Source: an uncultured Prevotella sp.
Lineage (GTDB): Bacteria > Bacteroidota > Bacteroidia > Bacteroidales > Bacteroidaceae
Length of the DNA: 64,000 nucleotides
Direction: 5' to 3'
Assembly (NCBI GenBank): GCA_900554835.1
Contig: USJD01000001.1
Location: forward strand, 24,758 to 88,757
The stretch's first letter is position 1; the number at the start of each line of letters is the position of its first letter. Made by a program: the position numbers and the translations under genes. The notes beneath the pieces are model-generated. The model worked only from the letters and a program-made list of their open reading frames with translations, did not search any database and was not told the origin of the DNA. Shown here one piece after another: positions 3,405-57,632 of this stretch.

Positions 3405-3448
3405 TTAATTTTGTATTGTTATTATAACACAAAATTACCGATTGTCAA
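3405..3448 (-). promoter_or_regulatory. sigmaA-type promoter (TTGACA-16-TATAAT) followed by the 15-nt motif ACAATACAAAATTAA
   Basis: -35 at 3443-3448, -10 at 3421-3426, motif at 3405-3419, then GGAGGG and the ATG at 3390. Confidence 0.6.
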
Positions 3449-3776
3449 GATACTCTCGTAAGTTTTTACATGTCTCTTGACAAGTCTTGCCCCCATCTGC
3501 TGATATATAACCCCAACCTTTATCACATCCGATACATGGATTAGGAATATCCTTGGGAAATAGTATCCCCTTACTGAGACAATCTCTCGCCTTTTGAGAC
3601 ATTTCAATGAGCTCATCGATGAGGTGCTTTAAATCCTCGACAGAATGGCAACCATCATAATCACAGCCAATCTGCCATATAAATTCTAGCCATTCATCAG
3701 CACAGTTTGGCTCACACATATTACAACCTGTCTGTTCATCTTTCCAAAAGTTCACTTTATTTTTCTCCCTAGACAA
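3435..3776 (-). CDS. hypothetical Cys-rich protein (113 aa)
   Basis: ORF track; several CxxC/CxxxxC pairs; the alternative frame 3422..3616 was rejected. Confidence 0.6.
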   Translation of the reverse strand: MSREKNKVNFWKDEQTGCNMCEPNCADEWLEFIWQIGCDYDGCHSVEDLKHLIDELIEMSQKARDCLSKGILFPKDIPNPCIGCDKGWGYISADGGKTCQETCKNLREYLDNR

Positions 3777-4024
3777 TCAACTTCAATAATATCATTATCT
3801 AACACATCTGTTTCATAAAGTATCTTTTCAAGTGCATGAAATTCACGAAAATAATATTCAAGCTCTTCTTTAAGATTTTGTACCGCTTCTTCCTTGCTTT
3901 CTCCATAACCACGTATGTTTTCTATATCTGTAGGTGAATAAAATTCAGAAGTATCTATTAGATAACATACATGTGAACCACATTTTTCTTTTCCATCATT
4001 ATAATGTGCAATTTTCATCAACAT
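3752..4024 (-). CDS. hypothetical protein (90 aa)
   Basis: ORF track; co-oriented, packed. Confidence 0.55.
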   Translation of the reverse strand: MLMKIAHYNDGKEKCGSHVCYLIDTSEFYSPTDIENIRGYGESKEEAVQNLKEELEYYFREFHALEKILYETDVLDNDIIEVDCLGRKIK

Positions 4025-4203
4025 GACTTTTCTCCTTTCGGTATATATTCATCACACGCTGGGGTGTCTTCATAGCATAAATGCCCAAAAATAAATGTCA
4101 ACCCTTTTTCACGTTCACCTTTTGTAGGATGACAAATATCACAGCAAAGATTCCAATCTCCACCGCCTATATAATGGTCACAGGTTCCACAATACTTAGA
4201 CAT
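4018..4203 (-). CDS. hypothetical Cys-rich protein (61 aa)
   Basis: ORF track; CGTCDH..CCDIC..C pattern. Confidence 0.55.
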   Translation of the reverse strand: MSKYCGTCDHYIGGGDWNLCCDICHPTKGEREKGLTFIFGHLCYEDTPACDEYIPKGEKSC

Positions 4204-4204
4204 A

Positions 4205-4615
4205 TTACTTCTCCTTTAAAAACTTCTTCATATCAAGTCCACGAAAGTTTTCTTGCCCCTTATAAATTTCGCCTTTATATGGAGCTGATTTCCAGTTGCT
4301 CCCTTCTGAAAATTTCTTGATATAATAGTTGTTTTCACCCTCATGATATAGATTTTCAGCTTCTTTATCTGTCATATAAGCTTGAAACATGCCAACTCCG
4401 TTACAATAAAAGATGTAACCATTTAAGTTATTTTTGCACCATGCAAATCGTATTTTTCTATAAATCCAACCAAAGAAAGAAATAATCGCAACAGGAACGA
4501 GTAGCGCTGTCCAAACTAGTACTTCGTCATTCTCCTTAGATAGCAAATATACAATTGTGCAAATGACCTGCCACGCTATAATACCTATTACAGTAGAAAT
4601 AATATAATTCATCAA
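4205..4615 (-). CDS. hypothetical membrane protein (136 aa)
   Basis: ORF track; two hydrophobic N-terminal segments. Confidence 0.6.
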   Translation of the reverse strand: MMNYIISTVIGIIAWQVICTIVYLLSKENDEVLVWTALLVPVAIISFFGWIYRKIRFAWCKNNLNGYIFYCNGVGMFQAYMTDKEAENLYHEGENNYYIKKFSEGSNWKSAPYKGEIYKGQENFRGLDMKKFLKEK

Positions 4616-4933
4616 TTAAACCTCCACACCAAAGCGTTCTTTTATTTGCTTAACGGCTTCTGCTCTCATACCCATATGCTCATCTTCTAGCATATCTAGC
4701 AAATAATTTATAACATTATCACTTGCTTTCCTATTGGCTCGAATGGCTTTTTCACGCTTTTCAGGATAGAAACTGCATATAGTTTCATCACCATCACAAC
4801 TACACGCATCACATTCTTTTGTGCCATAACATACTCCATATGTGCTAAGATATGAGCTCTCTGGCATCCCAGTAAAAGCATTGAAAATGTATCTACGTTC
4901 TGATCTTTCATGATAACTACTACATTTTTCCAT
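4616..4933 (-). CDS. hypothetical Cys-rich protein (start trimmed)
   Basis: ORF 4616..4993 trimmed to MEKCSSYHE (ATG at 4933) preceded by GGAGGATAAT; this removes the overlap with 4947..5294. Confidence 0.55.
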   Translation of the reverse strand: MEKCSSYHERSERRYIFNAFTGMPESSYLSTYGVCYGTKECDACSCDGDETICSFYPEKREKAIRANRKASDNVINYLLDMLEDEHMGMRAEAVKQIKERFGVEV

Positions 4934-4946
4934 ATTATCCTCCACC

Positions 4947-5294
4947 TTAATCCATTTGATAAGGTTTATCTTCCAAGATCCAAACCTCACCATCTTGCCC
5001 TATAATATCATAAAATGTAACAAGTTCATTTAGATTTACATTAGATATTTTTGCTCTATATTGATAGCGCCCAGTAGGAATATCTTGCTCAAAATCTCTT
5101 ACAAATATAATTAAAAGAGTTAGCACAATACATGCTATCGCACAAACCGCCGCACAAATCGCATCATTATATACTGATGTCAACACAAAAAATACAATTG
5201 CTACTGCAAGTGAAATAATAACTAGCCATACATACCAAGGAGGCAATACGCTATTAGTTATCGCTGTCTGGCTTAAAATTTCAACACCACTCAT
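4947..5294 (-). CDS. hypothetical 2-TM membrane protein, paralog of 5291..5644
   Basis: ORF track; C-terminus IPTGRYQYRA..YDIIGQDGEVWILEDK matches the neighbour's VPTGRYEYQV..YDIVGQDGLIWTLEDK. Confidence 0.6.
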   Translation of the reverse strand: MSGVEILSQTAITNSVLPPWYVWLVIISLAVAIVFFVLTSVYNDAICAAVCAIACIVLTLLIIFVRDFEQDIPTGRYQYRAKISNVNLNELVTFYDIIGQDGEVWILEDKPYQMD

Positions 5295-5644
5295 TTTTTA
5301 TCCTCCAAAGTCCAAATCAGTCCATCTTGCCCGACAATATCATAACGCAAGGCAAGCTCGTTTATATCGACAGTTTCATCAAGTAAAACCTGATATTCAT
5401 AGCGGCCAGTTGGAACTTCTTTTCTGGAAACTCCACCCGTGACAAGACAAAAGACAAAGGCCATAAGGAAGACCAAAGACCCCCAAGCACAACCTTCAGA
5501 ACATTCGCCCATCGCTACCAAAAATAATAAAAGACTTAGAACACCAAAAATAATTGCTGCAATCCACCAACCTTCTCCAACTATCTTGACAATCTCGTGC
5601 TGCGCCAGCACAGTTATTCCGTCAATCAGATATGTCATTGTCAT
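5291..5644 (-). CDS. hypothetical 2-TM membrane protein, paralog of 4947..5294
   Basis: ORF track; tandem duplicate, see the neighbouring feature. Confidence 0.6.
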   Translation of the reverse strand: MTMTYLIDGITVLAQHEIVKIVGEGWWIAAIIFGVLSLLLFLVAMGECSEGCAWGSLVFLMAFVFCLVTGGVSRKEVPTGRYEYQVLLDETVDINELALRYDIVGQDGLIWTLEDKK

Positions 5645-5792
5645 TTTTCAAACACCCCTCAATCGTTTTCAAACACTTTCTCCACTGACAAGCTACCGTA
5701 GCATCAAAGTCTCGTTCACATTCAAAGTTCAAGCAATCATAACAAAACTGCCTCTCATAAGCCTCTTTCCACAGTGCTTCTTCCCCGCCCAT
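5622..5792 (-). CDS. small Cys-rich protein (56 aa; not in ORF track)
   Basis: Own translation MGGEEALWKEAYERQFCYDCLNFECERDFDATVACQWRK.. after GGAGATGGAGG; paralogous to 5755..5940 (CxxCLNxEC..ACQWR). Confidence 0.4.
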   Translation of the reverse strand: MGGEEALWKEAYERQFCYDCLNFECERDFDATVACQWRKCLKTIEGCLKNDNDISD

Positions 5793-5940
5793 TAGCCTCC
5801 ATCTCCTTATGATATTTAGCCCAATTCCTCCATTGACAAGCTATTATATCTGAATAACCACGTTTACACTCGGAATTAAGGCAGAAATAACAGTAATTTA
5901 CTCGCCACCAACTAATCCAACCCTGATTTTCATCGCCCAT
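5755..5940 (-). CDS. small Cys-rich protein (start trimmed)
   Basis: ORF 5755..6006 trimmed to MGDENQGWISWW (ATG at 5940) after GGAGGAG; CYFCLNSEC..ACQWR motif. Confidence 0.45.
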   Translation of the reverse strand: MGDENQGWISWWRVNYCYFCLNSECKRGYSDIIACQWRNWAKYHKEMEANGRGRSTVERGL

Positions 5941-5962
5941 TAGTTCTCCTCCATCTCTGCTC

Positions 5963-6280
5963 TTAGTTATAGCGTACATACCCGTGTTCAAAAAGCCATT
6001 CTTCACTTACGACCTGTGGAATACGATCAAAGAAATGTTCTTTACACCAATTCCAATTTGATAACACCCCCCACTCTTTGAAATCACGATAAAAAGCTCG
6101 ATCATCCCCAACATCAATATAGATACGTATCGTATCTGGTTCACCCCATTTGTCCCAGATTTTAGGGTGAAACATACTCATCTGTGCAAGTTTATCTTGC
6201 TTATCAGGGGAGGAAGAACGAACGACAGTAATAAATTTTTCTATATAATAAGTACAAAAGTCCTTGTATTCATTGTCCAT
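5963..6280 (-). CDS. hypothetical protein (start trimmed)
   Basis: ORF 5963..6316 trimmed to MDNEYKDF (ATG at 6280), just after the stop of 6285..6515. Confidence 0.55.
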   Translation of the reverse strand: MDNEYKDFCTYYIEKFITVVRSSSPDKQDKLAQMSMFHPKIWDKWGEPDTIRIYIDVGDDRAFYRDFKEWGVLSNWNWCKEHFFDRIPQVVSEEWLFEHGYVRYN

Positions 6281-6284
6281 ATAA

Positions 6285-6515
6285 TTAGTCCTCTTCATAG
6301 TCATCAAAGTATTCAAATTCCTCTGACTCTACATAGTATTCCTCATTCACATCTATGACTGTTACATAATTGCCAATGCTCTCAACAATGTCATCGAGGT
6401 TATCGCCTTCAAAATTCTCAATGGCTCTCTCAAGCTCCTCTTCGTCGCTATAGGCTACAAAAATCTGATGCCGGACTTTTACTGTCTCTTCTAGTTCAAT
6501 AATTCTCTTCTGCAT
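6285..6515 (-). CDS. hypothetical highly acidic protein (76 aa)
   Basis: ORF track; D/E-rich throughout. Confidence 0.55.
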   Translation of the reverse strand: MQKRIIELEETVKVRHQIFVAYSDEEELERAIENFEGDNLDDIVESIGNYVTVIDVNEEYYVESEEFEYFDDYEED

Positions 6516-6527
6516 AATTAATCCTCC

Positions 6528-6740
6528 TTAATGTTGTTTATTATACTGTAGATCACCGATAAAATTATATATGTCTTCCTTACAATCTTTGCATACATCC
6601 TTTAAATAAAAATCACAATCGCATATAGGATAACCATCCTCATCTACCAAAGCAGAATTCTCATGCTTTATAGTGACACTGTACCTATAATCCTTGTGCT
6701 TCATTTCTCTGCCACATATATCACAAAATGTTTTAGTCAT
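6528..6740 (-). CDS. hypothetical zinc-ribbon protein (70 aa)
   Basis: ORF track; CDICG..CDC..CKDC. Confidence 0.55.
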   Translation of the reverse strand: MTKTFCDICGREMKHKDYRYSVTIKHENSALVDEDGYPICDCDFYLKDVCKDCKEDIYNFIGDLQYNKQH

Positions 6741-6741
6741 T

Positions 6742-6915
6742 TTAGTCTCCTTTTAATTCGTTATAATGTTCTTCAATCCATCCAAACCAAATACACTTTA
6801 CTATTATATCTGGATAATTTACAACATACATTAGGCATTTGCTTCGATTATTACATGCGGGACACGCAGGTTTAATTTGCTCAAACGGTGTTGCTTTTAA
6901 TTCCATCTCATCCAT
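6742..6915 (-). CDS. hypothetical protein (start trimmed)
   Basis: ORF 6742..6936 trimmed to MDEMELK (ATG at 6915) after GGAGG; the ATG overlaps the upstream stop. Confidence 0.5.
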   Translation of the reverse strand: MDEMELKATPFEQIKPACPACNNRSKCLMYVVNYPDIIVKCIWFGWIEEHYNELKGD

Positions 6916-7162: not shown

Positions 7163-7164
7163 AA

Positions 7165-7932: not shown

Positions 7933-7946
7933 AAATTTTTCCTCCA

Positions 7947-7991
7947 TTAATTTTGTACTGTCATAGTATCATAGATTTTTATATTTGTCAA
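7947..7991 (-). promoter_or_regulatory. sigmaA-type promoter (CTCTTGACAAAT-..-TACTAT) followed by motif ACAGTACAAAATTAA
   Basis: -35 at 7986-7991, 17-nt spacer, -10 at 7963-7968, motif at 7947-7961 running directly into GGAGG. Confidence 0.65.
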
Positions 7992-8021
7992 GAGGGAAGA
8001 TAGAATATTTCTGTCTCCCCT

Positions 8022-9035: not shown

Positions 9036-9062
9036 TCATTGTCTGAGCTCTCCTTTCTACAT

Positions 9063-9106
9063 TAATTTTGTATTGCTATTATACTACTGGGGATAGAATT
9101 TGTCAA
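9063..9106 (-). promoter_or_regulatory. sigmaA-type promoter (CTCTTGACAAAT-17-TATAAT) followed by motif GCAATACAAAATTAA
   Basis: -35 at 9101-9106, -10 at 9078-9083, motif at 9063-9077; upstream of the primase RBS. Confidence 0.65.
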
Positions 9107-9906: not shown

Positions 9907-9916
9907 ATAATCACCT

Positions 9917-13232: not shown

Positions 13233-13247
13233 TTAATTTTGTACTGT
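13233..13247 (-). promoter_or_regulatory. 15-nt motif ACAGTACAAAATTAA (no recognisable -35/-10)
   Basis: Sits between the terminator hairpin 13247-13270 and the RBS of the ATPase gene. Confidence 0.5.
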
Positions 13248-14443: not shown

Positions 14444-14458
14444 TTAATTTTGTATTGT
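14444..14458 (-). promoter_or_regulatory. 15-nt motif ACAATACAAAATTAA
   Basis: Starts at the last base of the stop codon of 14458..14661; about 60 nt upstream of the ATG at 14384. Confidence 0.5.
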
Positions 14459-14738: not shown

Positions 14739-14767
14739 ATTATACCATACAAAATTAATGTTGTCAA
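14739..14767 (-). promoter_or_regulatory. sigmaA-type promoter TTGACA-17-TATAAT
   Basis: -35 at 14762-14767, -10 at 14739-14744; the spacer carries an inverted copy of the 15-nt motif (14744-14758 on the + strand). Confidence 0.6.
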
Positions 14768-15015
14768 CCCCTTTTGACAATTTTAATTTCCATGTCCTTT
14801 CCGTTAATAATTATCTCATTGTCCCCTACGACATAATCTACAATTTCACCCTCGCGTATATAAATAGTTTGTTCCTTACAATGGAACCCATAACCAATTT
14901 CTGTTTCTGGGTCAAACTTCATTTGAATATGTTGACTACCAAAAAATCTATGCTTTGTATAGATCTCAACATATTCTCCTCTCATCTCTTCTAGTGCTTC
15001 TTTTAATTTTATCAT
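14764..15015 (-). CDS. hypothetical protein (83 aa)
   Basis: ORF track. Confidence 0.55.
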   Translation of the reverse strand: MIKLKEALEEMRGEYVEIYTKHRFFGSQHIQMKFDPETEIGYGFHCKEQTIYIREGEIVDYVVGDNEIIINGKDMEIKIVKRG

Positions 15016-15081: not shown

Positions 15082-15113
15082 GAACATATGTGCCCCCTGT
15101 TACAATTTTCTAA

Positions 15114-15128
15114 TTAATTTTGTACTGT
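15114..15128 (-). promoter_or_regulatory. 15-nt motif ACAGTACAAAATTAA
   Basis: Between hairpin 15144-15166 and the promoter at 15053-15081. Confidence 0.5.
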
Positions 15129-15143: not shown

Positions 15144-15166
15144 GAGCAATATTATATATATTGCTC
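15144..15166 (-). terminator. terminator-like hairpin overlapping the stop codon of 15152..16057
   Basis: GAGCAATAT-loop-ATATTGCTC; weak T-tract. Confidence 0.4.
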
Positions 15167-16057
15167 ATACTTTTGGGCCACATTATCTACCCAATAGTTA
15201 CCAAAATCATAACGTTTTGCTAATATCTCACCTTGTTTTGTCTTTAGAAATTCTCTTAACCCTAATTTTTTCTCTTCCATACCTAGTTGAAGATAATGCC
15301 ATAATCCTGATGCTGCAATATTTTTCATGGTAAGTCCCGGAATATCTAAATAATCTCTAAACATTTGTATTCGACGATAAACATATCTAAAACGTGAATC
15401 CTCGGTACTTACGCCCCTCATATTAAATCTTTCCTTATAAATTCTTCCTTTGCCGTTAACTTCAATAATCTTTGCAGTTTCTCCGTATGACATAATTTCT
15501 TCTTCTGCAAATGCCTTTGGAAGAATTTCTTTCAACCTATCGGTTATTGCATATTCTTTTCCATTAATGTATAAAACATCCCCTCTTACACATTCAACAG
15601 AAACAGCCAGTAAATCAACCATACTTTTCCCCGCAACACCCTCCCATAATAATTCTACAATTGCTTTATCAGACCAATTAAGCAATTGGGATTCGATATC
15701 ATCCAACTCTTCTCTTGTTAATAAAAGAATTGCATCTTTACTTATTAACTTGGCAAGATCTGCTTTTTCTATTGTTTCAAAAGCATTATTCTCAATATTT
15801 CCAGTTACCCAACGAGAATAATGCTTTAACACTACGCAATAATTCAATAATGAATTTATAGATTTCGCCTTAAATTTTGCGAACATATCAAGTATCTCAT
15901 CTTTAGTAAAATCTGAAACATCCTTATTATACTTTTCTTCAAAAGGTTCGGTCTTTTTTAATATTGCATAAAGGCTGGTCTTTGCAATAACTTTACTTCT
16001 TAAATATTCTTTCGCAAACTTTTCTTTTTGTTCTTGATTATACATCTCCTTCTTCAC
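15152..16057 (-). CDS. integrase-fold (SAM-like N-terminal domain) protein lacking catalytic residues; candidate MrpR/YopR-like repressor
   Basis: 301 aa; N-terminus resembles the core-binding domain of phage integrases; where HxxR would be it has LTMKNIAASGLWHYL; adjacent to a true integrase, as yopR is to yopP in SPbeta. Confidence 0.45.
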   Translation of the reverse strand: MKKEMYNQEQKEKFAKEYLRSKVIAKTSLYAILKKTEPFEEKYNKDVSDFTKDEILDMFAKFKAKSINSLLNYCVVLKHYSRWVTGNIENNAFETIEKADLAKLISKDAILLLTREELDDIESQLLNWSDKAIVELLWEGVAGKSMVDLLAVSVECVRGDVLYINGKEYAITDRLKEILPKAFAEEEIMSYGETAKIIEVNGKGRIYKERFNMRGVSTEDSRFRYVYRRIQMFRDYLDIPGLTMKNIAASGLWHYLQLGMEEKKLGLREFLKTKQGEILAKRYDFGNYWVDNVAQKYEQYI

Positions 16058-16068: not shown

Positions 16069-16097
16069 ATTGTAACAATACAATTTTAATTTGTCAA
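16069..16097 (-). promoter_or_regulatory. sigmaA-type promoter TTGACA-17-TACAAT
   Basis: -35 at 16092-16097, -10 at 16069-16074; the spacer has a motif-like sequence in inverted orientation (16075-16089). Confidence 0.55.
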
Positions 16098-17074
16098 ACC
16101 ATATCATCCATAATATTTATTGCCTGTTTAAGTTTCTTATTAGACATATCGGCGTAACGCATAGTTGTAGAAATATTGCTATGATGCAATTGTGCAGAGG
16201 CCAAATAAAGATCTCCTGTCTTTTCATAAATTGCAGTCGCGCATGAATGCCTTAGTACATGCGGAGTAATTTTTTTATTAGTTACACCCTCCGCATATTT
16301 AATTAACAGCTTTCTTATCGCATCATAACTAATACGCTGCCCATACTGAGATACAAACAGAGCATTAGTATTAGCCTTGCCAAAATATTTTTCCCTATCC
16401 TTTAACCATGCAACAAGAACTTTCTTAACCTTTTTACTAATCAATATATCAAATTCTTTATTTCTTTTTTCAATTACATGGATAGTATTATTCTCCAAGT
16501 TTATATCTTCAATATTAATCTGCTCAAGCGCAGCGACACGAATGCCTGTAGTTACACCAAGCATGAACAGCAAAAGATCCCTATTTACCATAGTTTCTTT
16601 TGCTTCATCCTCAATACACTCAATAATTCCTGTAATTTCATCCTCTGTTAAATAAGTCGCAGAAGGCTTATCAGTAATTTTAGGTCTGCTCTTTTTTGAA
16701 ACAGGATTTATTGTTATTTGCTTTGTATCAACCAAAAAATCAAAAAACGAATTTAGTGCATACCAATGACTTGCTCTAAATGAACTTGAAGTTGCCTTTG
16801 TTCTTCCCTTAATCGTTTTTGTTTCAAGACTAATCATATATTTATTAACATCCATAGTTGAAACATTTTTATAAAAATTTCTACTATCATTTCCATTTGT
16901 TGTAAATTCCATAAAATTTTTCATGGAATTGATATACTCTCCAATAGTCCTATAGGACTTTTTTTCTGCACGAAGGGTGTAATAATATTCTGTAAAGATT
17001 TCAGGTAATGATTTAAGTTTATTTTCAATCTTTGCAAATTCTATAGTTTCTTTTTCTAAACGTCCATTACTCAT
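16094..17074 (-). CDS. tyrosine recombinase / phage integrase
   Basis: 326 aa; GIRVAAL (Arg), HVLRHSCAT (HxxR) and LHHSNISTTMRYA (His..Tyr) form the catalytic signature. Confidence 0.85.
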   Translation of the reverse strand: MSNGRLEKETIEFAKIENKLKSLPEIFTEYYYTLRAEKKSYRTIGEYINSMKNFMEFTTNGNDSRNFYKNVSTMDVNKYMISLETKTIKGRTKATSSSFRASHWYALNSFFDFLVDTKQITINPVSKKSRPKITDKPSATYLTEDEITGIIECIEDEAKETMVNRDLLLFMLGVTTGIRVAALEQINIEDINLENNTIHVIEKRNKEFDILISKKVKKVLVAWLKDREKYFGKANTNALFVSQYGQRISYDAIRKLLIKYAEGVTNKKITPHVLRHSCATAIYEKTGDLYLASAQLHHSNISTTMRYADMSNKKLKQAINIMDDMV

Positions 17075-17977: not shown

Positions 17978-18006
17978 ATTATACCAAATTAATTTTGTCT
18001 TGTCAA
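17978..18006 (-). promoter_or_regulatory. sigmaA-type promoter TTGACA-17-(TGg)TATAAT with a motif variant in the spacer
   Basis: -35 at 18001-18006, -10 at 17978-17983; the spacer reads AGACAAAATTAATTTGG (motif at 17989-18003). Confidence 0.6.
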
Positions 18007-23395: not shown

Positions 23396-23410
23396 TTAAT
23401 TTTGTATTGT
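23396..23410 (-). promoter_or_regulatory. 15-nt motif ACAATACAAAATTAA
   Basis: Immediately after the stop of 23411..23713 and 24 nt before the ATG at 23372. Confidence 0.5.
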
Positions 23411-36736: not shown

Positions 36737-36765
36737 ATTATTTCACTTTAATTTTGTGTTGTCAA
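36737..36765 (-). promoter_or_regulatory. candidate promoter TTGACA-17-AATAAT with the 15-nt motif in the spacer
   Basis: -35 at 36760-36765, -10 at 36737-36742, motif ACAACACAAAATTAA at 36748-36762. Confidence 0.45.
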
Positions 36766-36867
36766 CTCCATATCTCTTTCAGCTTCGAAATATGTGTCAG
36801 CACTGCCGCAGAAATTTCCGTTATCATCAAGGATAACGTAGTGTCCATGATAAGGAATTATTTTCAT
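36748..36867 (-). CDS. small hypothetical protein (39 aa; not in ORF track)
   Basis: Own translation MKIIPYHGHYVILDDNGNFCGSADTYFEAERDMELTTQN; the motif supplies the last codons and the stop. Confidence 0.35.
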   Translation of the reverse strand: MKIIPYHGHYVILDDNGNFCGSADTYFEAERDMELTTQN

Positions 36868-36868
36868 T

Positions 36869-37063
36869 TTACAGCTCCCATGTACCAACCTGATTACCAT
36901 TGTAATCCATGCAAACTCCCTCAGTTCTACCTGCCTTGATATGATTGCAAATAGATGAGAAGATGTCTTTCAATTCTCTTGCTGTGGCATAATTGTCCAT
37001 GCTTTCATCATACCCATATGGGGCATGAAAAGCTGCGTTGCCAGTGTTAATTTCTATTTTCAT
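36869..37063 (-). CDS. hypothetical protein (64 aa)
   Basis: ORF track. Confidence 0.5.
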   Translation of the reverse strand: MKIEINTGNAAFHAPYGYDESMDNYATARELKDIFSSICNHIKAGRTEGVCMDYNGNQVGTWEL

Positions 37064-40476: not shown

Positions 40477-40677
40477 TTACTCCTTTCCCGTTAATTTTGT
40501 GCTGTCAAAACACGCCATGACAAGGCTGTGAACATTTGCGATTGCACAAGTGTCACAGTCAAGACGCATTCCCTTGTTGCAACAACAGTCACAACTATAA
40601 GCAAATGCCTTTTGTGCTTCTGCCTTGCTATTTGCGGCATACTGTTTGTTGACACCGACCTGTTCAAATTTGTACAT
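40477..40677 (-). CDS. hypothetical Cys-rich protein (66 aa)
   Basis: ORF track; AAAGGGGA RBS; CDCCCN..CDTC. Confidence 0.5.
   Translation of the reverse strand: MYKFEQVGVNKQYAANSKAEAQKAFAYSCDCCCNKGMRLDCDTCAIANVHSLVMACFDSTKLTGKE
40491..40505 (-). promoter_or_regulatory. 15-nt motif ACAGCACAAAATTAA preceded by TTG (giving TTGACA)
   Basis: Lies in the 3' end of 40477..40677, 11 nt upstream of the AAAGGAG of the next gene; no -10 seen. Confidence 0.45.
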
Positions 40678-40703
40678 AATATTCCCCTTTCTATGAACTT
40701 AAA

Positions 40704-40754
40704 TAAGCCCATACAAAAGCCCTTGAAGTATTCAAGAGCTTTAATCTGGGTTTA
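40704..40754 (-). repeat. intergenic element family copy B
   Basis: - strand: TAAACC-N11-GCTCTTGAA-TAC-TTCAAGGGC-TTTTG-TATGGGCTTATT; TAA is the stop of 40752..40991. Confidence 0.5.
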
Positions 40755-41344: not shown

Positions 41345-41359
41345 TTAATTTTGTGCTGT
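41345..41359 (-). promoter_or_regulatory. 15-nt motif ACAGCACAAAATTAA
   Basis: 6 nt after the stop of 41366..42052, immediately upstream of element copy C. Confidence 0.5.
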
Positions 41360-43380: not shown

Positions 43381-43430
43381 CTAAAAGAAAATATATATTA
43401 AAATTTTATTATTAATATTATATTATTAAG
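43381..43430. other. AT-rich tract (3 G/C in 50 nt), candidate DNA-unwinding element
   Basis: CTAAAAGAAAATATATATTAAAATTTTATTATTAATATTATATTATTAAG directly precedes the iterons. Confidence 0.4.
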
Positions 43431-43435
43431 CGTTA

Positions 43436-43588
43436 TCATTTTGAGACATAAAAAGTCTCTTTTTGAGACATATGTAGTGTCATTTTGAGACATTCTCATT
43501 TTGAGACATTATATCTCTTTTTGACACATAAAGTATCATTTTGAGACAAGTAGTCTCTTTTTTAATATAGTCGTATCTTTTTGACACA
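43436..43588 (+). repeat. eight direct iterons, consensus TC(A/T)(T/C)TTTTGA(G/C)ACA
   Basis: Copies start at 43436, 43456, 43480, 43496, 43514, 43536, 43554 (degenerate) and 43574; spacing 16-24 bp; all in the same orientation. Confidence 0.7.
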
Positions 43589-43595
43589 AAACCTC

Positions 43596-43643
43596 TTGAC
43601 AAATTAATCTTTATATGCTATATTAGCTACAGTACAAAATTAA
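43596..43643 (+). promoter_or_regulatory. rightward sigmaA-type promoter (CTCTTGACAAAT-17-TATATT) followed by motif ACAGTACAAAATTAA
   Basis: -35 at 43596-43601, -10 at 43619-43624, motif at 43629-43643, then GGGAGG and the TTG start at 43663. Confidence 0.65.
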
Positions 43644-44928: not shown

Positions 44929-45078
44929 ATGGAAAATAGACATTGTAGCGCTTGTGGTAAAAAGCTACCTGATTGGTCTGAGTCGGGTAAATGCTTTGAA
45001 TGTATAGAACAAGCTTTGGCTCAACTTTTTAAGAAAGAAACTAAACGAAAGAAGGAAAAGAATAATGCAGACACCTAA
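44929..45078 (+). CDS. small zinc-ribbon protein (49 aa; not in ORF track)
   Basis: Own translation MENRHCSACGKKLPDWSESGKCFECIEQ.. Confidence 0.4.
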   Translation: MENRHCSACGKKLPDWSESGKCFECIEQALAQLFKKETKRKKEKNNADT

Positions 45079-45298
45079 TGCGGTTGCCGAAGATATTATA
45101 AAGATTATTTATGATATATATTATGGTCAAGATGAGGAAGCAATTCAGTTTCGTGTACGTTATGGAGCTAATGGTGCAGTGAATAAAATTATTCGTACAA
45201 TACGAGAAAAGTATGGTGTAGAGCCTAAATCTAACGCCTACCCTCTTGACAAATCTGAAAAATCTGATATAATAACACTAGAAACAATACAAAATTAA
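45065..45298 (+). CDS. hypothetical protein (77 aa)
   Basis: ORF track; its 3' end contains a promoter and the 15-nt motif (..LETIQN-stop). Confidence 0.5.
   Translation: MQTPNAVAEDIIKIIYDIYYGQDEEAIQFRVRYGANGAVNKIIRTIREKYGVEPKSNAYPLDKSEKSDIITLETIQN
45246..45298 (+). promoter_or_regulatory. sigmaA-type promoter (CTCTTGACAAAT-16-TATAAT) followed by motif ACAATACAAAATTAA
   Basis: -35 at 45246-45251, -10 at 45268-45273, motif at 45284-45298, then GGAGG and the ATG at 45312. Confidence 0.6.
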
Positions 45299-46655: not shown

Positions 46656-46764
46656 AAAACGGCGTGAATTTCGCACCCAATTCTTTAAGCAAGGCAATTT
46701 CATTAGGAACATATAAAATTAAAAATAGCTTCAAAAAATCAATAGAATACAATAGGAGGCATTT

Positions 46765-49681: not shown

Positions 49682-49692
49682 GGTGATCACTT

Positions 49693-49935: not shown

Positions 49936-49970
49936 TTATCATACAATCCACAAGATTGGAGTGATGATTA

Positions 49971-52802
49971 TTGGCGAAAGCGCAAAAAACACAGCAATTT
50001 ATATATAAAATTAATTCAAGCTTATTAAAACAAAATAATTGGGACTTAAATTTGCCCTTATCAGATGCAAGAAAGATTCCCGGAGTGGTTGTTTCTTTAG
50101 CTGACTCACAAATTTTGACTTGGATTAATGAATTAAATGGAACAGAAGATTATGATTTTAAAGCAAAACAGATCAAAAAAGAAATAAAAGAGATTAAAAA
50201 ACAGCCAAATAGTACAGAAAATAAAGAAGAAGTTTCAAAAAAATATAAGGATTTATATGAACTACAGTTTAAAAAAGACTATTTGTGCTTAGTAATAGAT
50301 AAAAAAGGTGATTATGATAGAGCTAATCAGGGGTTTAAAATAAATGGCATTCCATATAAACGCCTTATTTGTACGACAAATGGTGTAAAAACATCTAGTG
50401 TTGTTTATGCTGCAGATAGATTTGTTGAATATAATGGTAGCATGATTAATATTCATGATGAACTAAAAAGGCGCATAGAAAATGGTAGAAATACATCAGT
50501 TAAATTGTCTCCTGCTAAATATGGGGCCTACGAATCTCTGGCTGCAAGTGCTTCTATACCCGTTAGTTGGCCGAGAACTGGGGATAATAAAATTCCCGGA
50601 GGTATAATCGTAGTTAAGGATTGCATTGTCCATTTTAAAACTGATTTTATAGAGATTGATGATAGCGATCCTACAAAAGAACCAAAAGTTACTGAAAAGC
50701 ATAATGAAGATTTTGAAAATAATATGTCTGATGGGTGTTCAATGATGCTCCCCCATTTGTCAAAAAGATGGAATGGTGAACTGAATGGAGATCCAGAGCA
50801 TACAATGAGTGGATGTAATATGCGTTGCGCATTCACAAAAGGTATGGCTTTGACTTTTGATTTTATAAAATTTGCGGAAGAAGTTGTTGGTGCTTCTGAA
50901 AATTGTCCTGAAAAATATTTAATTAAGGATTATTGGGGGCAAGAAAGAGACATCAGAGATGCAGATTTAATATTGACTGAAAGTCAGCTTAAATTATGCG
51001 GAAGTTATTCTTCATGGGAAGATTATTATCAAAAATGTATTGAAAATAAATATACTTTAAGAGTTACAAAGACTTCTGAAGAAGAAAATGATGATATAAG
51101 ACAATTAAATTATCAATTTATCCAATCTTTAAACCTTACAGATGAGGATATTGATGAGCTTGTCTCCCCTACTGTTAATGAAATAAAAGACATTATGGGG
51201 TTAGACCCTCGAAAAAGTATAGCTTATTTATGCGGCAAAGGTTTGAATGAAAATAATGTTATGAGTGCGGATAATATTGCAAAAGCACTTATGATTGATA
51301 AAAATACGATAAATGACCCTTATATTCGCTCAAAAATCAAAAAAATGATTAATAGGCGCATAAAAGATGCTAAAATTGGGGTTTTGGACTTACATGGCAA
51401 CTTTCAAATTCTTTCAGGGGACTTATATGCTCTTTGTGAGAGTATGTTCGGGTTAGAACCTCATGGGATTTTAGATGCAGGAGAAATTTATAGCAAATAT
51501 TGGTATGATGAGGGTGTTGATAGAGTGCTTTGTTTTAGAGCTCCAATGAGCAATGCTCACTCAATAGTGGCTCAGAATATTTGTAAAAAACAAAAAGCTC
51601 TTTACTGGTTTCAATATATTGATACCTGTATAGTTGTTAATGGTTGGGACACTATGCCAGCGGCGCTAAATGGCTTTGATTTTGATGGAGATCTTTTATT
51701 TACAACAAATAATGCTCCTTTAATGAGAAGACAAACTAATCTTCCTGCTTTAAATTGTATACAGACTAAGGCTCCCAAAAAGATTGTGACAGAAGATGAT
51801 GTAATTGCATCTAATAAGGCTGGATTTGGTAGCAAAATTGGTTCTATAACAAATAAAATTACTCAAATGACAAGTTTAATGGCAAATTATGCTCCCGGCA
51901 GCAAAGAGTACGAAGCTCTTAGATATAGAACTCAATGTGGGCAGGCATTGCAACAAAGAGAGATTGACAAGGCAAAAGGAATTTTACCTATCCCGATGCC
52001 TAAAGAATGGCATAATTATGGAGCAAATATTATTCAATCTGATGATTCTGAGGAAATTCAAGAACAAAAACGCTTTAATCAGAGGATTTGTGCTCATAAA
52101 AAGCCTTATTTCTTCATATATAACTATGATGCAGAAAGAATTAATTATCAAAAATTTATTGAAGAAGCGAACTCAAAATCAACCAGTTTATATGGAATTT
52201 CGTTTGAGGAAATGTTAAAATTGGGCGATTTAGATGGTGAAACTGAGAAATTTGTTAATTATTGTTCTGCAAAATGCCCAATTGATATGTCCCCTTCTAC
52301 TATGAATCGTATATGTCATAAAATAGAGAGTGAATTTAAAGAAAATTTTTCGTGTGAGGATGTTGAATTTGATTATACAATTTATAAATCAAAAAATGAT
52401 GTAAAAAGAGCTTCGTATGCTGAAATAAAATCCTTGTGCGAACATTATTTAATGGATTTAAAGACCTTGAATAGTAGAAAAGTTAATAATGAAGAAGAAA
52501 GAAAAGTACTTTTAGCGGATAAAGATAGACTTCTTGAAACTCTTGTAGAAGATGTTACCTCTGTTTGTCCTAATGAAGAATCTCTATGTGATATACTTTT
52601 AGACATTTGTTATAGCGGCAAGATGAGTAAAAGTATAGTTTGGGATATTTGTGGAGGACAAATTATTAAAAATATGTTAGAAAAGCATGATTATACTTTG
52701 ACATATCCTGAAAAATGTGGAGAAGCAGATTTTTGGTGTTGCGGTACTAAATTTTCTAATAAAACTATAAAAATTGGAGGTGACGGTATAGATGAAGTTT
52801 AA
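49971..52802 (+). CDS. YonO-like single-subunit two-barrel DNA-dependent RNA polymerase
   Basis: 943 aa, TTG start after GGAGTGA. VLCFRAPMSNAHSIVAQNI..ALNGFDFDGDLLF parallels the beta-prime double-psi barrel (NRAPTLH..NADFDGD); DFDGD is encoded at 51678-51692. Confidence 0.6.
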   Translation: MAKAQKTQQFIYKINSSLLKQNNWDLNLPLSDARKIPGVVVSLADSQILTWINELNGTEDYDFKAKQIKKEIKEIKKQPNSTENKEEVSKKYKDLYELQFKKDYLCLVIDKKGDYDRANQGFKINGIPYKRLICTTNGVKTSSVVYAADRFVEYNGSMINIHDELKRRIENGRNTSVKLSPAKYGAYESLAASASIPVSWPRTGDNKIPGGIIVVKDCIVHFKTDFIEIDDSDPTKEPKVTEKHNEDFENNMSDGCSMMLPHLSKRWNGELNGDPEHTMSGCNMRCAFTKGMALTFDFIKFAEEVVGASENCPEKYLIKDYWGQERDIRDADLILTESQLKLCGSYSSWEDYYQKCIENKYTLRVTKTSEEENDDIRQLNYQFIQSLNLTDEDIDELVSPTVNEIKDIMGLDPRKSIAYLCGKGLNENNVMSADNIAKALMIDKNTINDPYIRSKIKKMINRRIKDAKIGVLDLHGNFQILSGDLYALCESMFGLEPHGILDAGEIYSKYWYDEGVDRVLCFRAPMSNAHSIVAQNICKKQKALYWFQYIDTCIVVNGWDTMPAALNGFDFDGDLLFTTNNAPLMRRQTNLPALNCIQTKAPKKIVTEDDVIASNKAGFGSKIGSITNKITQMTSLMANYAPGSKEYEALRYRTQCGQALQQREIDKAKGILPIPMPKEWHNYGANIIQSDDSEEIQEQKRFNQRICAHKKPYFFIYNYDAERINYQKFIEEANSKSTSLYGISFEEMLKLGDLDGETEKFVNYCSAKCPIDMSPSTMNRICHKIESEFKENFSCEDVEFDYTIYKSKNDVKRASYAEIKSLCEHYLMDLKTLNSRKVNNEEERKVLLADKDRLLETLVEDVTSVCPNEESLCDILLDICYSGKMSKSIVWDICGGQIIKNMLEKHDYTLTYPEKCGEADFWCCGTKFSNKTIKIGGDGIDEV

Positions 52803-54388: not shown

Positions 54389-54400
54389 TTTGTCAATTCG

Positions 54401-54415
54401 ACAGCACAAAATTAA
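54401..54415 (+). promoter_or_regulatory. 15-nt motif ACAGCACAAAATTAA
   Basis: 12 nt after the GIY-YIG stop and directly upstream of the terminator at 54421-54449. Confidence 0.5.
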
Positions 54416-54420
54416 TGTCA

Positions 54421-54449
54421 AAAATGCAAGGTATTCTCTTGCATTTTTG
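54421..54449 (+). terminator. intrinsic terminator
   Basis: ATGCAAG-GTATTCT-CTTGCAT followed by TTTT. Confidence 0.6.
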
Positions 54450-54542
54450 GCACTTTAGCTAACTAAAGTTGGGGCAAAATAGTAATGATATAAGGATATG
54501 CCTTGTATTAAACTAATAAAAACAATAACGGAGGTACAAAGA

Positions 54543-55169
54543 ATGGACGAACTATTAAGTAATGTATTGGTGGGAGTTCCTGAACCTATTGCGAATCTAC
54601 AATTACCTGATCCAAATCTCAGGGATTACTATAGGGATGAGCAAGATAGAATTTATTGGCTAGATAGTCAGATTTCTGATAATAGTCTTGATCTTGTAGA
54701 ATTTATTATGAAATGCAACAAAGAAGATGCTGGTAAATCTGCGGAAGAAAGAAAACGTATTCTTGTTATGATAGATTCCCCCGGTGGTTCAGTCGAGTGT
54801 GAACAGTCAATAATTGGAGCAATGAGAATTAGTCAGACTCCTGTTTGGACATGCGTATATTGCACAGCATATTCTGCTGCAGCAGATATACTTACATGTG
54901 GACATAAGCGTTTAGCTCTTCCCGGTACTGCTGTAATGTTTCATGCGGGTTCTGGAAGGTACGAAGGTACTCAGGCACAGATTGAATCAGCTAAGAACTT
55001 TTTTGATAAGATGAATAAGAGTATTAATGAGTACGTCTATAGTAGGACAAATTTTGATACGAAGATGAAGAATAAGCTTAAGAAGGATGACGTTTATATG
55101 AATGAAGAAGATGCATTAACTAATGGGGTAATCGATGGAATTATTAAGTCATTCGATGAACTATTTTAA
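54543..55169 (+). CDS. ClpP-family serine protease-like protein (start trimmed)
   Basis: ORF 54498..55169 trimmed to MDELLSN after GGAGG; VMIDSPGGSV, CTAYSAAADIL and MFHAGSG align with ClpP motifs. Confidence 0.6.
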   Translation: MDELLSNVLVGVPEPIANLQLPDPNLRDYYRDEQDRIYWLDSQISDNSLDLVEFIMKCNKEDAGKSAEERKRILVMIDSPGGSVECEQSIIGAMRISQTPVWTCVYCTAYSAAADILTCGHKRLALPGTAVMFHAGSGRYEGTQAQIESAKNFFDKMNKSINEYVYSRTNFDTKMKNKLKKDDVYMNEEDALTNGVIDGIIKSFDELF

Positions 55170-55186
55170 TGCAAGGGAGGGTTTGT

Positions 55187-55897
55187 ATGGCTACAAAGAA
55201 AAAGGCTGTTACAAATGAGCATGGCGAAGCACCAAAGAATATAAATGAACATCCGTTTTATGGATTAATGTTAGATGATGAACAAAAAGAATTTGTAAAT
55301 GCTATTTTAAATCCAGATAAATTAATTGTTTTTGCAAATGCAAGAGCTGGTACTGGTAAGACACTTATGGCAGTAGCGGCAGCGAATCTTTTGGTTCAGC
55401 ATGGAGAATATGATGGAATAGTATATATAGTTAGTCCTGTACAGGAGGCTAAACTTGGATTCCTTCCCGGTAGTGTGGATGAAAAAATTTCTATTTATAC
55501 CGCTCCATTGTATGATGCTTTAGTAAAGCTTGGGATTAATCCCTATACTACGGTTATTCAAGAGGGCGTAGAAAATCAAAAGAATGGAACCGCTTATATT
55601 GATTGCATTTCTCATGTTTATTTAAGAGGTTGTAATTTAGAAAATAAGGTGATTATAATTGAAGAAAGTCAGAATATGTATCTTGATGAATTAAAGAAAG
55701 TGTTAACAAGAATTTCTGATACTTCTAAGACAATTGTTATTGGACATAGTGGGCAATGCGATCTATATTATCACCCTGAAAATAGTGGGTTTGTTAGATA
55801 TATAGAACATTATAGAAATGAACCTTATGCTCAGATATGCAATCTAACTATAAATCATAGAGGCATTGTGAGTACTAAAGCGGATGAATTGGAATAA
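55187..55897 (+). CDS. phoH: PhoH-like ATPase (start trimmed)
   Basis: ORF 55169..55897 trimmed to MATKKKAV after GGGAGGG; Walker A ARAGTGKT, IIIEESQN, VIGHSGQCDL. Confidence 0.75.
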   Translation: MATKKKAVTNEHGEAPKNINEHPFYGLMLDDEQKEFVNAILNPDKLIVFANARAGTGKTLMAVAAANLLVQHGEYDGIVYIVSPVQEAKLGFLPGSVDEKISIYTAPLYDALVKLGINPYTTVIQEGVENQKNGTAYIDCISHVYLRGCNLENKVIIIEESQNMYLDELKKVLTRISDTSKTIVIGHSGQCDLYYHPENSGFVRYIEHYRNEPYAQICNLTINHRGIVSTKADELE

Positions 55898-55914
55898 ATA
55901 GGAGGAACAAGAAA

Positions 55915-56100
55915 ATGAGTAAAGCAGCATTTAGTCGTAAATATACTTTGAATGCCACGGGCATTCTTTCAATAGAAGATGATATTGTCGCAATAGAGAA
56001 TCCTGATACTGGAGAACTCATACCTCTATCTGATTTAATGGCTGATTTTAAAGACAAGACTTGTAAACTCAGTCTGAATTATGATGAAGACTATGAGTAA
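55915..56100 (+). CDS. hypothetical protein (61 aa)
   Basis: ORF track; TAGGAGG RBS. Confidence 0.5.
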   Translation: MSKAAFSRKYTLNATGILSIEDDIVAIENPDTGELIPLSDLMADFKDKTCKLSLNYDEDYE

Positions 56101-56114
56101 GGCGGTGTACATAG

Positions 56115-56411
56115 ATGATCCTAAAAAAGAAAGATATTGTTGATGAGTTAAGCAAGAGAACTAAATTTTATAAGAACTCAACAGAACGTTTTGTAAGTGC
56201 TCTTGAAGATATGATTATTGAATATCTTAATCAGGCAGAGGTAGATGATAATGTTGAAATTCAAATTGCTAAGGGGTTAATAATAGGGTCACGTAGAGTT
56301 CCTGAGCATGAGGCAAAAGATCCTAGAAATCAGGATGATGTTATTGTTCCTGAGAGAGTCCTCCCCTACGCAAGATTTACAGATACCTTTAAGCAAAAAA
56401 TAAACGAGTGA
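56115..56411 (+). CDS. HU/IHF-family DNA-binding protein
   Basis: 98 aa; KKDIVDELSKRT..F..ALEDMI.., arm region RRVPEHEAKDPRNQDDVIVPERVLPYARF matches the HU beta-arm pattern (R.NP.T...I....VP.F). Confidence 0.7.
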   Translation: MILKKKDIVDELSKRTKFYKNSTERFVSALEDMIIEYLNQAEVDDNVEIQIAKGLIIGSRRVPEHEAKDPRNQDDVIVPERVLPYARFTDTFKQKINE

Positions 56412-56422
56412 GAGGTATAAAT

Positions 56423-57616
56423 ATGGAATATAAGAGATTTGAGAATGAAGCAGAAGATTCGTATATTTTAAGGATATGTGAGATGAAGCAAACTCAGGGC
56501 TGGACGTGGCAAGACATCGCGGATATTTTGAATGATGCTCTTGGACATAATTTTGATGAGAGCAGATATAGAAAGCAGTATCAATCTTACTCTAAAATGC
56601 TTGAGGCTAATGAGGACAAGATTTTTACTGATGATGAATACCTGAAGAAAATTCGTGAAGAAAAAGATGAATTATATAAAGCCAAGAAACAGTTTCAAGA
56701 CCAAAGGCGTGAATATAATAAGATTCTTGCCATGGACGCACGTTCTGACCATTTAACGGAAGAGCTTATCAAGGCTGCGAATAGATTAAATTCTGAAAAG
56801 CAACTCGGGATGGATAATGTAAGTTTTTATATGAATTCTGAGAATGATGCAGTTCTTTGCTTGACGGATTGGCACTATGGAATGGTGACTGATAATATTT
56901 GGAATAAATTTGATGTGGCTACATGTGTTGAAAGAGTTAATACGTTGTGTGCGAAGTGCAAGGAGTATTTAAGCTTACATAATGTGAATAGGCTTCATGT
57001 TCTATTGCTTGGAGATTTTATTTCAGGGGCAATTCATTCAACGGTTAGGGTTGCTTCTGAGGAAGATTGTTGTGACCAGTTGATTCATGTTACTGAATTG
57101 ATTGCAGAATTTATTGATGAAGTTTCGACTAAAGTTAATGAAGTTCATGTCTATTCTACTTATGGCAATCATGCAAGAACTGTGCAGAAGAAAGACGATA
57201 GTATTCATTCAGATAATATGGAGAAAGTCATTCCTTGGTGGCTTAATCAAAGATTTATAAATAGCAAAAAGGTATTTATACAAAGCAATGATTTTTATGA
57301 GTTTATTTATTTGAATGTTCTTGGACATGATATTATTGGTGTTCATGGTGATTTAGATAGGTTTGAAAAGATAGGCATGGATATGCATACATTATTCCAT
57401 AAGCAATATGGGTTTGATGTTGAATATACATTTAGTGGAGATAAGCATCATCTTGACTCAAATGACCCTTATGGCATAGAGAATGTGTTGGTCAGATCAT
57501 TATGTGGTACTGATAATTATGCAAATAATAAGAGACTATACTCTAAAGCTGGACAAACTTTATGTATTTTTAATCAGGAAGATGGTAAGGTTTGTACTTA
57601 TAACATAGCATTTTAA
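56423..57616 (+). CDS. calcineurin-like metallophosphoesterase (SbcD/Mre11-style motifs) with N-terminal helical extension
   Basis: ORF 56408..57616 trimmed to MEYKRFEN; motifs LTDWHYG, LLGDFISG, YGNHAR, GVHGD, SGDKHH. Confidence 0.65.
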   Translation: MEYKRFENEAEDSYILRICEMKQTQGWTWQDIADILNDALGHNFDESRYRKQYQSYSKMLEANEDKIFTDDEYLKKIREEKDELYKAKKQFQDQRREYNKILAMDARSDHLTEELIKAANRLNSEKQLGMDNVSFYMNSENDAVLCLTDWHYGMVTDNIWNKFDVATCVERVNTLCAKCKEYLSLHNVNRLHVLLLGDFISGAIHSTVRVASEEDCCDQLIHVTELIAEFIDEVSTKVNEVHVYSTYGNHARTVQKKDDSIHSDNMEKVIPWWLNQRFINSKKVFIQSNDFYEFIYLNVLGHDIIGVHGDLDRFEKIGMDMHTLFHKQYGFDVEYTFSGDKHHLDSNDPYGIENVLVRSLCGTDNYANNKRLYSKAGQTLCIFNQEDGKVCTYNIAF

Positions 57617-57617
57617 T

Positions 57618-57632
57618 ACAATACAAAATTAT
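57618..57632 (+). promoter_or_regulatory. 15-nt motif variant ACAATACAAAATTAT
   Basis: 2 nt after the stop of 56423..57616 and directly upstream of the terminator at 57638-57667. Confidence 0.4.

Follow-up and report, generated by a model that had tools for sequence, protein, structure and literature searches.

A dispersed 15-nucleotide motif as the probable operator of an MrpR/SroF-type repressor in an uncultivated SPbeta-like phage

A 15-nt motif, ACARYACAAAATTAA, recurs along both arms of a 64-kb stretch of contig USJD01000001.1 (hereafter the window). We propose that it is the asymmetric operator of an integrase-fold master repressor of the MrpR/SroF type, encoded at positions 15152-16045 of the same stretch, and the counterpart of the SPBRE and Phi3TRE elements; based on the sequence and its comparison with relatives, we give this interpretation a probability of about 0.72. 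Most likely, the system is one already known from the Bacillus phages SPbeta and phi3T, of which this is a new example. The initial annotation of the window had noted the repeat and proposed four hypotheses, namely an operator for the integrase-fold repressor candidate, a promoter for the YonO-like RNA polymerase of the phage, an RNA-level leader and a replication-polar DNA signal. The first of them fits best, given an MrpR homologue, a motif placed on strong sigmaA promoters including that of the repressor itself, and a site syntax like those of SPBRE and Phi3TRE. The MrpR/SroF 'clamp' repressor system with dispersed operators would thus not be limited to the Spbetaviruses of Bacillus but also occur in a large family of uncultivated phages of ~150-170 kb.

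The motif is strongly enriched over what composition predicts. ACARYACAAAATTAA has 13 exact matches in the window versus 0.01 expected from shuffled sequences, and 22 matches with at most two mismatches versus 2.45 expected; neither count was reached by any shuffle. It is the top over-represented k-mer of the window, and the same scan revealed no second dispersed repeat there as an alternative target of the repressor. With at most one mismatch, the window contains 18 copies. About 19 had been annotated initially, including one near 46709 (at 46708) that has three mismatches and was dropped; the listed coordinates were right except that the copies given at 9063 and 28196 start at 9062 (with G as first base) and 28195, respectively. 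Three inverted copies were added to the earlier list, at 3424, 14744 and 16075, all in spacers of minus-strand promoters. Further written forms of the motif-bearing DNA are ACAATACAAAATTAA and ACAATACAAAATTAAT. In the window copies, the edges of the motif are sharp at 15 nt. The flanks, analysed in the window and in 65 non-redundant contexts from relatives, hold no information except for a downstream purine-rich ribosome-binding signal, and a search for a longer operator of 24-26 bp found no flanking conservation in those 65 contexts.

As first noted, the copies are almost exclusively intergenic and follow the direction of transcription. All ten exact copies to the left of ~42.7 kb, where the genes switch strand, are on the minus strand, and all three to the right of it are on the plus strand; the GC skew changes sign at ~43 kb. 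Considering the copies with at most one mismatch, 17 of the 18 point the same way as the genes around them (binomial p = 1.4e-4), and 14 of the 18 contain no more than three coding bases versus 13.7% of non-coding DNA in the window by a rough gene model (p = 1.5e-9). In most copies, a ribosome-binding site follows the end of the motif by 0-26 nt. The motif also provides the final TAA of three upstream open reading frames (ORFs), at 36748-36900, 40491-40712 and 45065-45298, in line with the stop codons proposed initially.

The ORF at 15152-16045 (minus strand) codes for a 297-aa protein from its ATG codon, or for 301 aa from a GTG at 16057. It had been singled out as an integrase-fold repressor candidate, and PDB and Pfam matches identify it as a homologue of MrpR/YopR/SroF. 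Thus, phmmer searches of PDB sequences returned 8bj6 and 8a0a (YopR/MrpR) and 9rd5, a 2025-26 entry, with E-values of about 1e-15. The Pfam domain MrpR_N_CB scored 58.8 bits (cut-off 27), MrpR_C_cat scored 25.3 bits, just below its cut-off of 27, and both domains are precomputed for all homologues. The gene lies in the same neighbourhood as in SPbeta, where MrpR, also named YopR or SroF, is the master repressor. Chromatin affinity purification followed by sequencing (ChAP-seq) placed MrpR on SPBRE at ten promoters, in agreement with electrophoretic mobility shift assays (EMSA) and reporter assays (PMC10516654; Kohm et al. NAR 2023); the description of SPBRE is attributed there to Lazarevic 1999. 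The SroF protein of phi3T is a monomer that nearly encircles the DNA and binds a 26-bp asymmetric box, CAGTAATTTTATTTTTATTCTTAATG, at many genome sites, and it is released by the SOS-controlled antirepressor Sar (bioRxiv 10.1101/2025.11.27.690993). The lack of symmetry in the sites is explained by the binding of the phi3T repressor as a monomer.

The genes of the window and their order are those of an SPbeta-like phage, and the window belongs to an uncultivated phage of this type that measures ~163 kb. A megablast search with 8 kb of the window against GenBank phages gave no match. In contigs from metagenomes, the identical 297-aa product is encoded 23 times, the longest of these contigs measuring 163-165 kb.

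A window scan for strong intergenic sigmaA promoters with a perfect TTGACA in the direction of the genes found nine, and all nine carry the motif. The offsets are +1, +1, +1, +4 and +10 for copies past the -10, -26 and -26 for copies on the -35, and -20 and -21 for inverted copies, and they define three registers. In the first register, exact copies at 3405-3419 and 7947-7961 and a one-mismatch copy (G1) at 9062-9076, all on the minus strand, lie 1 nt past the -10 of the promoters 3448-3421 (of consensus type), 7991-7963 and 9106-9078, respectively; at these three sites ACAAAATTAA starts 7 nt past the -10, as the initial annotation had it. On the plus strand, the exact copy at 43629-43643 lies 4 nt past the -10 of the first promoter of that arm (43596-43624), and that at 45284-45298 lies 10 nt past the -10 of the promoter 45246-45273, which heads the gene run to the YonO-like RNA polymerase gene. 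The transcript would start within the motif at all five promoters. In the second register, the first ACA of the motif is the ACA of TTGACA, confirming the fusion to the -35 described initially. This is the case of a one-mismatch copy at 17989-18003 (minus strand), which has orthologues in relatives and lies on the promoter 18006-17978 that heads the operon with the integrase-like and repressor genes at its end, and of the exact copy at 36748-36762 (minus strand), on the promoter 36765-36737, the same copy that ends the ORF 36748-36900.

In the third register, the motif is inverted within the spacer of minus-strand promoters and thus reads on the plus strand. A degenerate copy with two mismatches at 3424-3438 occupies the spacer of the promoter 3448-3421, which therefore bears both a direct and an inverted copy, making ten copies on nine promoters. 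A one-mismatch copy at 14744-14758 is in the spacer of the consensus promoter 14767-14739, and a variant copy, ACAATACAATTTTAA, at 16075-16089 is in that of the repressor gene's own promoter, 16097-16069. An inverted copy in the spacer of the repressor promoter is also found in relatives with repressors of clades A, B and D (defined below), where it varies with the motif class. The registers recur in 11 relatives: 26 of their 33 strong coding-strand promoters bear the motif, which is at exactly +1 in 16 of them, at -26/-23 in six and inverted at -20/-21 in the other four. The strong early promoters (7997, 9112, 43592, 45242 and those of relatives) have in common an upstream part, CCTCTTGACAAA (four copies), and a TG-extended -10. 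Their sequences suggest that they arose by duplication of promoter-operator cassettes; this may be why the motif keeps a constant distance of 1 nt from the -10.

No sigmaA promoter with acceptable spacing was found at the ~10 remaining copies, either by scan or by eye, even when weak ones were considered. Two of them follow hairpins. The exact copy at 15114-15128 (minus strand) comes right past the hairpin after the repressor gene, with ~30 nt between it and the downstream -35 of a promoter with a LexA-like box, and its orthologue is present in all relatives compared. The exact copy at 13233-13247 (minus strand) has a hairpin on one side and the ribosome-binding site of the Sak4-like (AAA_24) gene on the other, and its position is kept in relatives. 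Of the terminators initially proposed before these copies, that before 15114 stands, whereas the hairpin before 13233 is seen in the sequence only and falls below the T-run rule of the terminator scanner. Two copies on the plus strand precede terminators, also as first described: an exact one at 54401-54415, conserved in position among relatives and directly upstream of the hairpin 54419-54449, and a one-mismatch one at 57618-57632, followed by the terminator 57638-57662 and then by the first late gene, at the position of yonK. In some relatives, the counterpart of the latter abuts the ribosome-binding site of that gene.

The other promoter-less copies are on the minus strand. The exact copy at 30684-30698 directly abuts AGGAGG, and that at 40491-40505, which gives the ORF 40491-40712 its stop codon, likewise adjoins a ribosome-binding site, with the next start codon 16 nt further on. 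The exact copy at 14444-14458, devoid of a strong promoter, overlaps the stop codon of a small zinc-ribbon ORF upstream of a 371-aa gene, and that at 23396-23410 adjoins the stop codon upstream of it, with 23 nt left to the start codon that follows. A one-mismatch copy at 28195-28209 lies within the 3' end of a reverse transcriptase ORF, and the exact copy at 41345-41359 is the first of the minus arm.

Relatives of the phage were found via its proteins; in IMG/VR they form a large mosaic family of phages of ~150-170 kb (numbered here with the prefix L). Among them, the motif persists at orthologous sites whose flanks have diverged. The motif itself falls into four classes (TTAA, TKAA, TTAT and TGAT), with genome-wide changes of its 3' end that track four clades of the repressor. 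The 3' end is ..AAAATTAA in clade A, whose repressors are at least 61% identical to that of the window, ..AAAAT[TG]AAT in clade B (about 45% identical), ..TTATT in clade C (L148; about 45%) and ..TGATT in clade D (33-39%). The motif is unchanged in L004, whose repressor is 79% identical and whose integrase, Sak4-like and helicase genes are only 34-43% identical. Conversely, it is changed in L038 and L039, whose repressors are 35-36% identical and whose Sak4-like genes are 77% identical (L038) or give a partial match of 84% (L039). The identities in these three phages thus uncouple the motif from the neighbouring integrase, Sak4-like and helicase genes. At positions aligned with those by which phi3T SroF reads DNA, clade D has F234 replaced by Y and H237 by Q, and a segment of helix alpha-2 reads SLY in clades A and B, SLS in clade C and TTR in clade D. 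The pairing of the operator variants TTAA, TKAA, TTAT and TGAT with repressor clades offers a natural series with which to map DNA reading by the integrase fold and the origin of immunity classes.

By analogy with the Bacillus phages, each site would be clamped by one repressor monomer, which on both arms would block the RNA polymerase of the host at early promoters. The blocked promoters would include that at the head of the run to the YonO-like polymerase gene and that of the repressor's own operon, and the weaker inverted copy in the repressor's own promoter would mediate negative autoregulation. At promoter-less copies, the bound repressor might act as a roadblock to read-through transcription, on arms in which all genes point one way; such a function would explain the fixed orientation of the motif. 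Transcription of the lysogeny operon runs in the direction of the lytic genes that lie beyond it, and on that path the copies at 15114 and 13233 come right past hairpins. The operator hypothesis accounts for the overlaps with promoters, the bases shared with the -35, the inverted and putatively autoregulatory copy, and the presence of a site at the lysogeny operon. The lack of any other repeat on which the repressor could act fits it too, as does a syntax that matches those of two validated systems down to the closeness to ribosome-binding sites.

Several observations weigh against this interpretation. About ten of the 18 copies have no recognizable sigmaA promoter, and therefore simple promoter occlusion cannot explain them. 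The conserved block measures 15 nt, versus 24 bp contacted by the phi3T repressor and a block of ~24 nt in SPBRE. The motif is absent from SPbeta (0 exact copies), and only an A-tract core of the AAAATTA type is common to it and the phi3T box, which could be due to chance in AT-rich DNA. The first late gene has a conserved copy immediately before it, a place where SPbeta and phi3T have none. In a sample of 49 repressor loci and about 45 polymerase loci, the clades of the YonO-like polymerase are congruent with the motif classes, and hence covariation alone cannot tell the repressor from the polymerase as the reader of the motif. Clade-specific changes at DNA-contact positions are only weakly enriched, with 2-3 observed versus about 0.7 expected. 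Finally, the product of the 83-aa gene next to the repressor gene, described below, is unlike the known antirepressor fold.

In a more specific and rather doubtful form of the operator hypothesis, the 15-mer is a one-direction element. A monomer bound to an asymmetric site would stop polymerase arriving from one side, so that co-orientation would be kept on both arms, also at the promoter-less sites near terminators and ribosome-binding sites, where the copies would be directional roadblocks or insulators. A variant of this proposal is that the 15-mer may double as a promoter of the YonO-like polymerase, with repressor release and initiation taking place at one site.

A different reader of the motif could be the YonO-like single-chain RNA polymerase itself, a 943-aa protein encoded at 49971-52802 on the plus strand, with a Pfam RdRP match and 29% identity to SPbeta YonO. 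The 15-mer would then be its promoter, or the core of it, from which early, middle and late genes are transcribed anew in lytic growth; the promoter-less copies would be genuine promoters of the phage polymerase, and the sigmaA sites would be dual promoters. We consider this improbable. The sharp bounds, conservation, copy number and co-orientation of the motif, as well as its location just upstream of ribosome-binding sites, are those of phage-polymerase promoters, and both co-orientation and the promoter-less copies would be explained naturally, including those that come after terminators (13233 and 15114). A conserved copy precedes the first late gene, by synteny the start site of SPbeta YonO (PMC5467207), and the polymerase clades match the motif classes. 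The same paper gives no YonO promoter sequence, and hence there is no direct contradiction. Nevertheless, three fixed registers on nine of nine perfect-TTGACA promoters, with an ACA shared with the -35, would be needless for independent dual promoters; fixed -10 and -35 registers, the shared ACA and inverted copies in spacers contradict independence from host promoter elements. The inverted copy in the repressor promoter spacer is conserved, and copies precede the lysogeny operon and the gene run of the polymerase itself. In SPbeta, YonO uses a single late promoter and the dispersed repeat is the repressor site (PMC5467207, PMC10516654). Moreover, the repressor homologue would be left without a candidate site. 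The promoter registers and inverted copies thus speak against the initial proposal of a YonO-like promoter, and the late-gene copy and the clades in step with the motif speak for it.

The polymerase gene shows further diversity among relatives. In one clade-D phage, its product is very divergent, with 32% identity over the C-terminal part. In L071 (8001-11815), L072, L073, L074 and L087, the match to the YonO-like gene extends over 3.0-3.8 kb, versus 2.8 kb, with many in-frame stop codons. This pattern points to an intervening sequence within the polymerase gene, either an intron or a mobile element with an endonuclease. L085 and L088, which have more distant YonO-like genes, lack the ACAAAAT motif and contain 8-9 copies of CGAAAAGGAA, all on the same strand, which may represent a further repeated element specific to a lineage.

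Still less probable is the possibility that the copies are recombination linkers at the boundaries of gene cassettes, without a regulatory role at most sites, or else a replication-polar signal. The phage family is highly mosaic, and L015 has a single copy (5311-5325) where L010 has two copies around a 1.1-kb segment (4747-5884), with flanks matching at 118 of 120 positions on the left and 108 of 120 on the right. A linker role would leave unexplained the invariance of the 15 nt despite diverging flanks, as well as the fixed promoter registers and the concerted genome-wide change of the 3' end. L012 has a shortened version of the L010 segment, with copies at 5993 and 6077, and in these phages motif copies mark gene-cassette boundaries. 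Recombination at copies is real and is best seen as a consequence of having repeats. As for replication, the orientation of the copies follows the presumed direction of replication away from an iteron-like region at 43.4-43.6 kb, and orientation relative to replication and to transcription are inseparable in this window. Polar replication signals such as Chi and KOPS are not confined to intergenic DNA, and the near-exclusive intergenic placement of the copies thus argues against the replication-polar signal suggested at first.

A role in mRNA, as an unstructured A-rich leader that enhances translation or serves as a processing or binding site upstream of the Shine-Dalgarno sequence, is highly unlikely: most copies do precede a ribosome-binding site by 0-26 nt in the sense orientation, and transcripts would start inside the motif at five promoters, but the -35-fused and inverted copies are conserved even though they would not be present in sense in the transcripts of their promoters, those at 54401 and 57618 precede terminators, ten sites have no common fold (z-scores of -2.2 to +0.9, with different structures), no Rfam family matches at gathering score, and the DNA-binding box of phi3T is likewise close to ribosome-binding sites. 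Short intergenic spacers can explain this closeness. A tRNA scan of the window was empty.

The gene order around the repressor bears on its control. Directly upstream, at the position of yopP/sroD, is a gene of the Phage_integrase family (16094-17074, minus strand). The operon comprises this gene and three small ORFs upstream of the repressor gene; it has no gene of the size of YopQ and is shorter than sroA-F. Past the repressor gene come the hairpin, the motif copy at 15114, a promoter (TTGCAA 15081-15076, TAATAT 15058-15053) overlapped by GAACATATGTGC (15082-15093) and an 83-aa gene (14764-15015, minus strand). GAACATATGTGC is a LexA-like box that overlaps the -35 of this promoter; it has one mismatch in the window and is a perfect GAAC-N4-GTTC at that place in relatives. 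By itself, the box is not significant in the window (13 found versus 16 expected), and its support comes from its kept position in relatives. The 83-aa gene is a positional candidate only for an SOS-controlled antirepressor, because its position and the LexA-like box match the position and SOS control of Sar. Structure prediction gave no support for a Sar/YopT fold of its product: the AlphaFold model (predicted local distance difference test, pLDDT, 81) is beta-rich, and the best hit of a PDB fold search had E = 0.025, with no YopT or Sar among the matches. L017 (3650-4480), L018 and L019, which encode the identical repressor, differ by a GIY-YIG/NUMOD homing-endonuclease gene inserted just downstream of the 83-aa gene, in the region corresponding to 14.4-14.7 kb of the window.

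Elsewhere, the window contains replication genes of the RecJ-like, DnaB-like and Sak4-like (AAA_24) types. In the early region of the phage, a reverse transcriptase of 419 aa is encoded at 28120-29379 on the minus strand (Pfam RVT_1, E = 1e-22). At 43390-43590, there are seven or eight direct repeats (TCATTTTGAGACA / CTTTTTGAGACA / CTTTTTGACACA) spaced 16-40 nt apart, with four exact copies where none is expected. They adjoin a pure A+T block (43390-43430) and are part of the 1 kb of non-coding DNA between the divergent arms, where the GC skew changes sign; the first plus-arm promoter comes just after them. The array looks like replication-origin iterons with an unwinding element, or like a site array of a second regulator.

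A search of GTDB genomes with the repressor protein alone gave no match. With an alignment as query, the sole match among GTDB species genomes was L285 (JAZRQP010000051.1, 162,567 bp), a contig of phage size binned with a metagenome-assembled genome of Faecalimonas sp., with a repressor 45% identical to that of the window. This hints at a gut host in the Lachnospiraceae, binning being weak evidence.

Among known systems, promoters of phage RNA polymerases, such as the 17 T7 promoters, resemble the motif in their sharp bounds, conservation, co-orientation, multiple copies and lineage-specific positions. The motif differs from them in that it is interlocked with host sigmaA elements and inverted in spacers. 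With the heteroimmune sets of lambdoid phages it has in common that operator and repressor diverge together, which defines immunity classes. Lambdoid operators are palindromes that cluster in two control regions and bind dimers. In contrast, the sites of this phage lack symmetry and are scattered over tens of kilobases, and each probably binds a monomer.

The closest likeness is to SPBRE and Phi3TRE, both of which we scanned in their genomes. In SPbeta, the ten published targets carry the SPBRE core AATATGTATA, preceded by ACAAATACAAAT; the ten intergenic copies of the core are all co-oriented with the next gene and are located in the spacer, past the -10, before the -35 or against the ribosome-binding site. 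SPBRE and the motif of this phage have homologous cognate proteins and are asymmetric, dispersed, intergenic and co-oriented, with varied placement relative to sigmaA promoters. Both also have copies at the promoter of the repressor operon (that of yopM in SPbeta, 18006-17978 here) and at the head of the YonO operon, where the window promoter 45246-45273 heads the run to the polymerase gene as SPBRE precedes yonP-yonO. The differences are the sequence (about ACAAATACAAATAATATGTATA in SPbeta versus ACARYACAAAATTAA here), the shorter conserved block (15 nt versus about 24 nt), a density ~4 times higher (18 copies in 64 kb versus 10 in 134 kb) and a repressor only ~26% identical over the aligned part. 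This phage also adds promoter-less copies, inverted spacer copies and a copy ahead of the late genes. The yonN-yonK gap of SPbeta, the region where YonO starts, is a 1.7-kb non-coding stretch that has no counterpart at the 57.6-kb site of the window.

The phi3T core, AGAATAAAAATAAAAT, has 35 copies with at most two mismatches, all co-oriented with the genes and restricted to the early region, where they flank the divergence point to the left and to the right, and many of them directly abut a ribosome-binding site without an obvious promoter. These properties are those of the motif, as is the A-tract core, the gene-sense box ending in ..ATAAAATTACTG in phi3T versus ..ATACAAAATTAATG here. The two elements differ in sequence, in the longer contacted length in phi3T (24 bp), in the frequent register, directly upstream of the -35 in phi3T versus directly past the -10 here, and in the lack of a copy in front of yonK in the scan of phi3T. 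Neither the SPbeta nor the phi3T repressor paper (PMC10516654; bioRxiv 10.1101/2025.11.27.690993) uses the words 'orientation' or 'roadblock', and co-orientation as a feature of the system derives from our scans of the two genomes rather than from a published criterion. The reason for the co-orientation of all sites and the role of promoter-less sites are questions for SPbeta and phi3T as well, with strict co-orientation being common to SPbeta (10/10), phi3T (35/35) and this phage (17/18).

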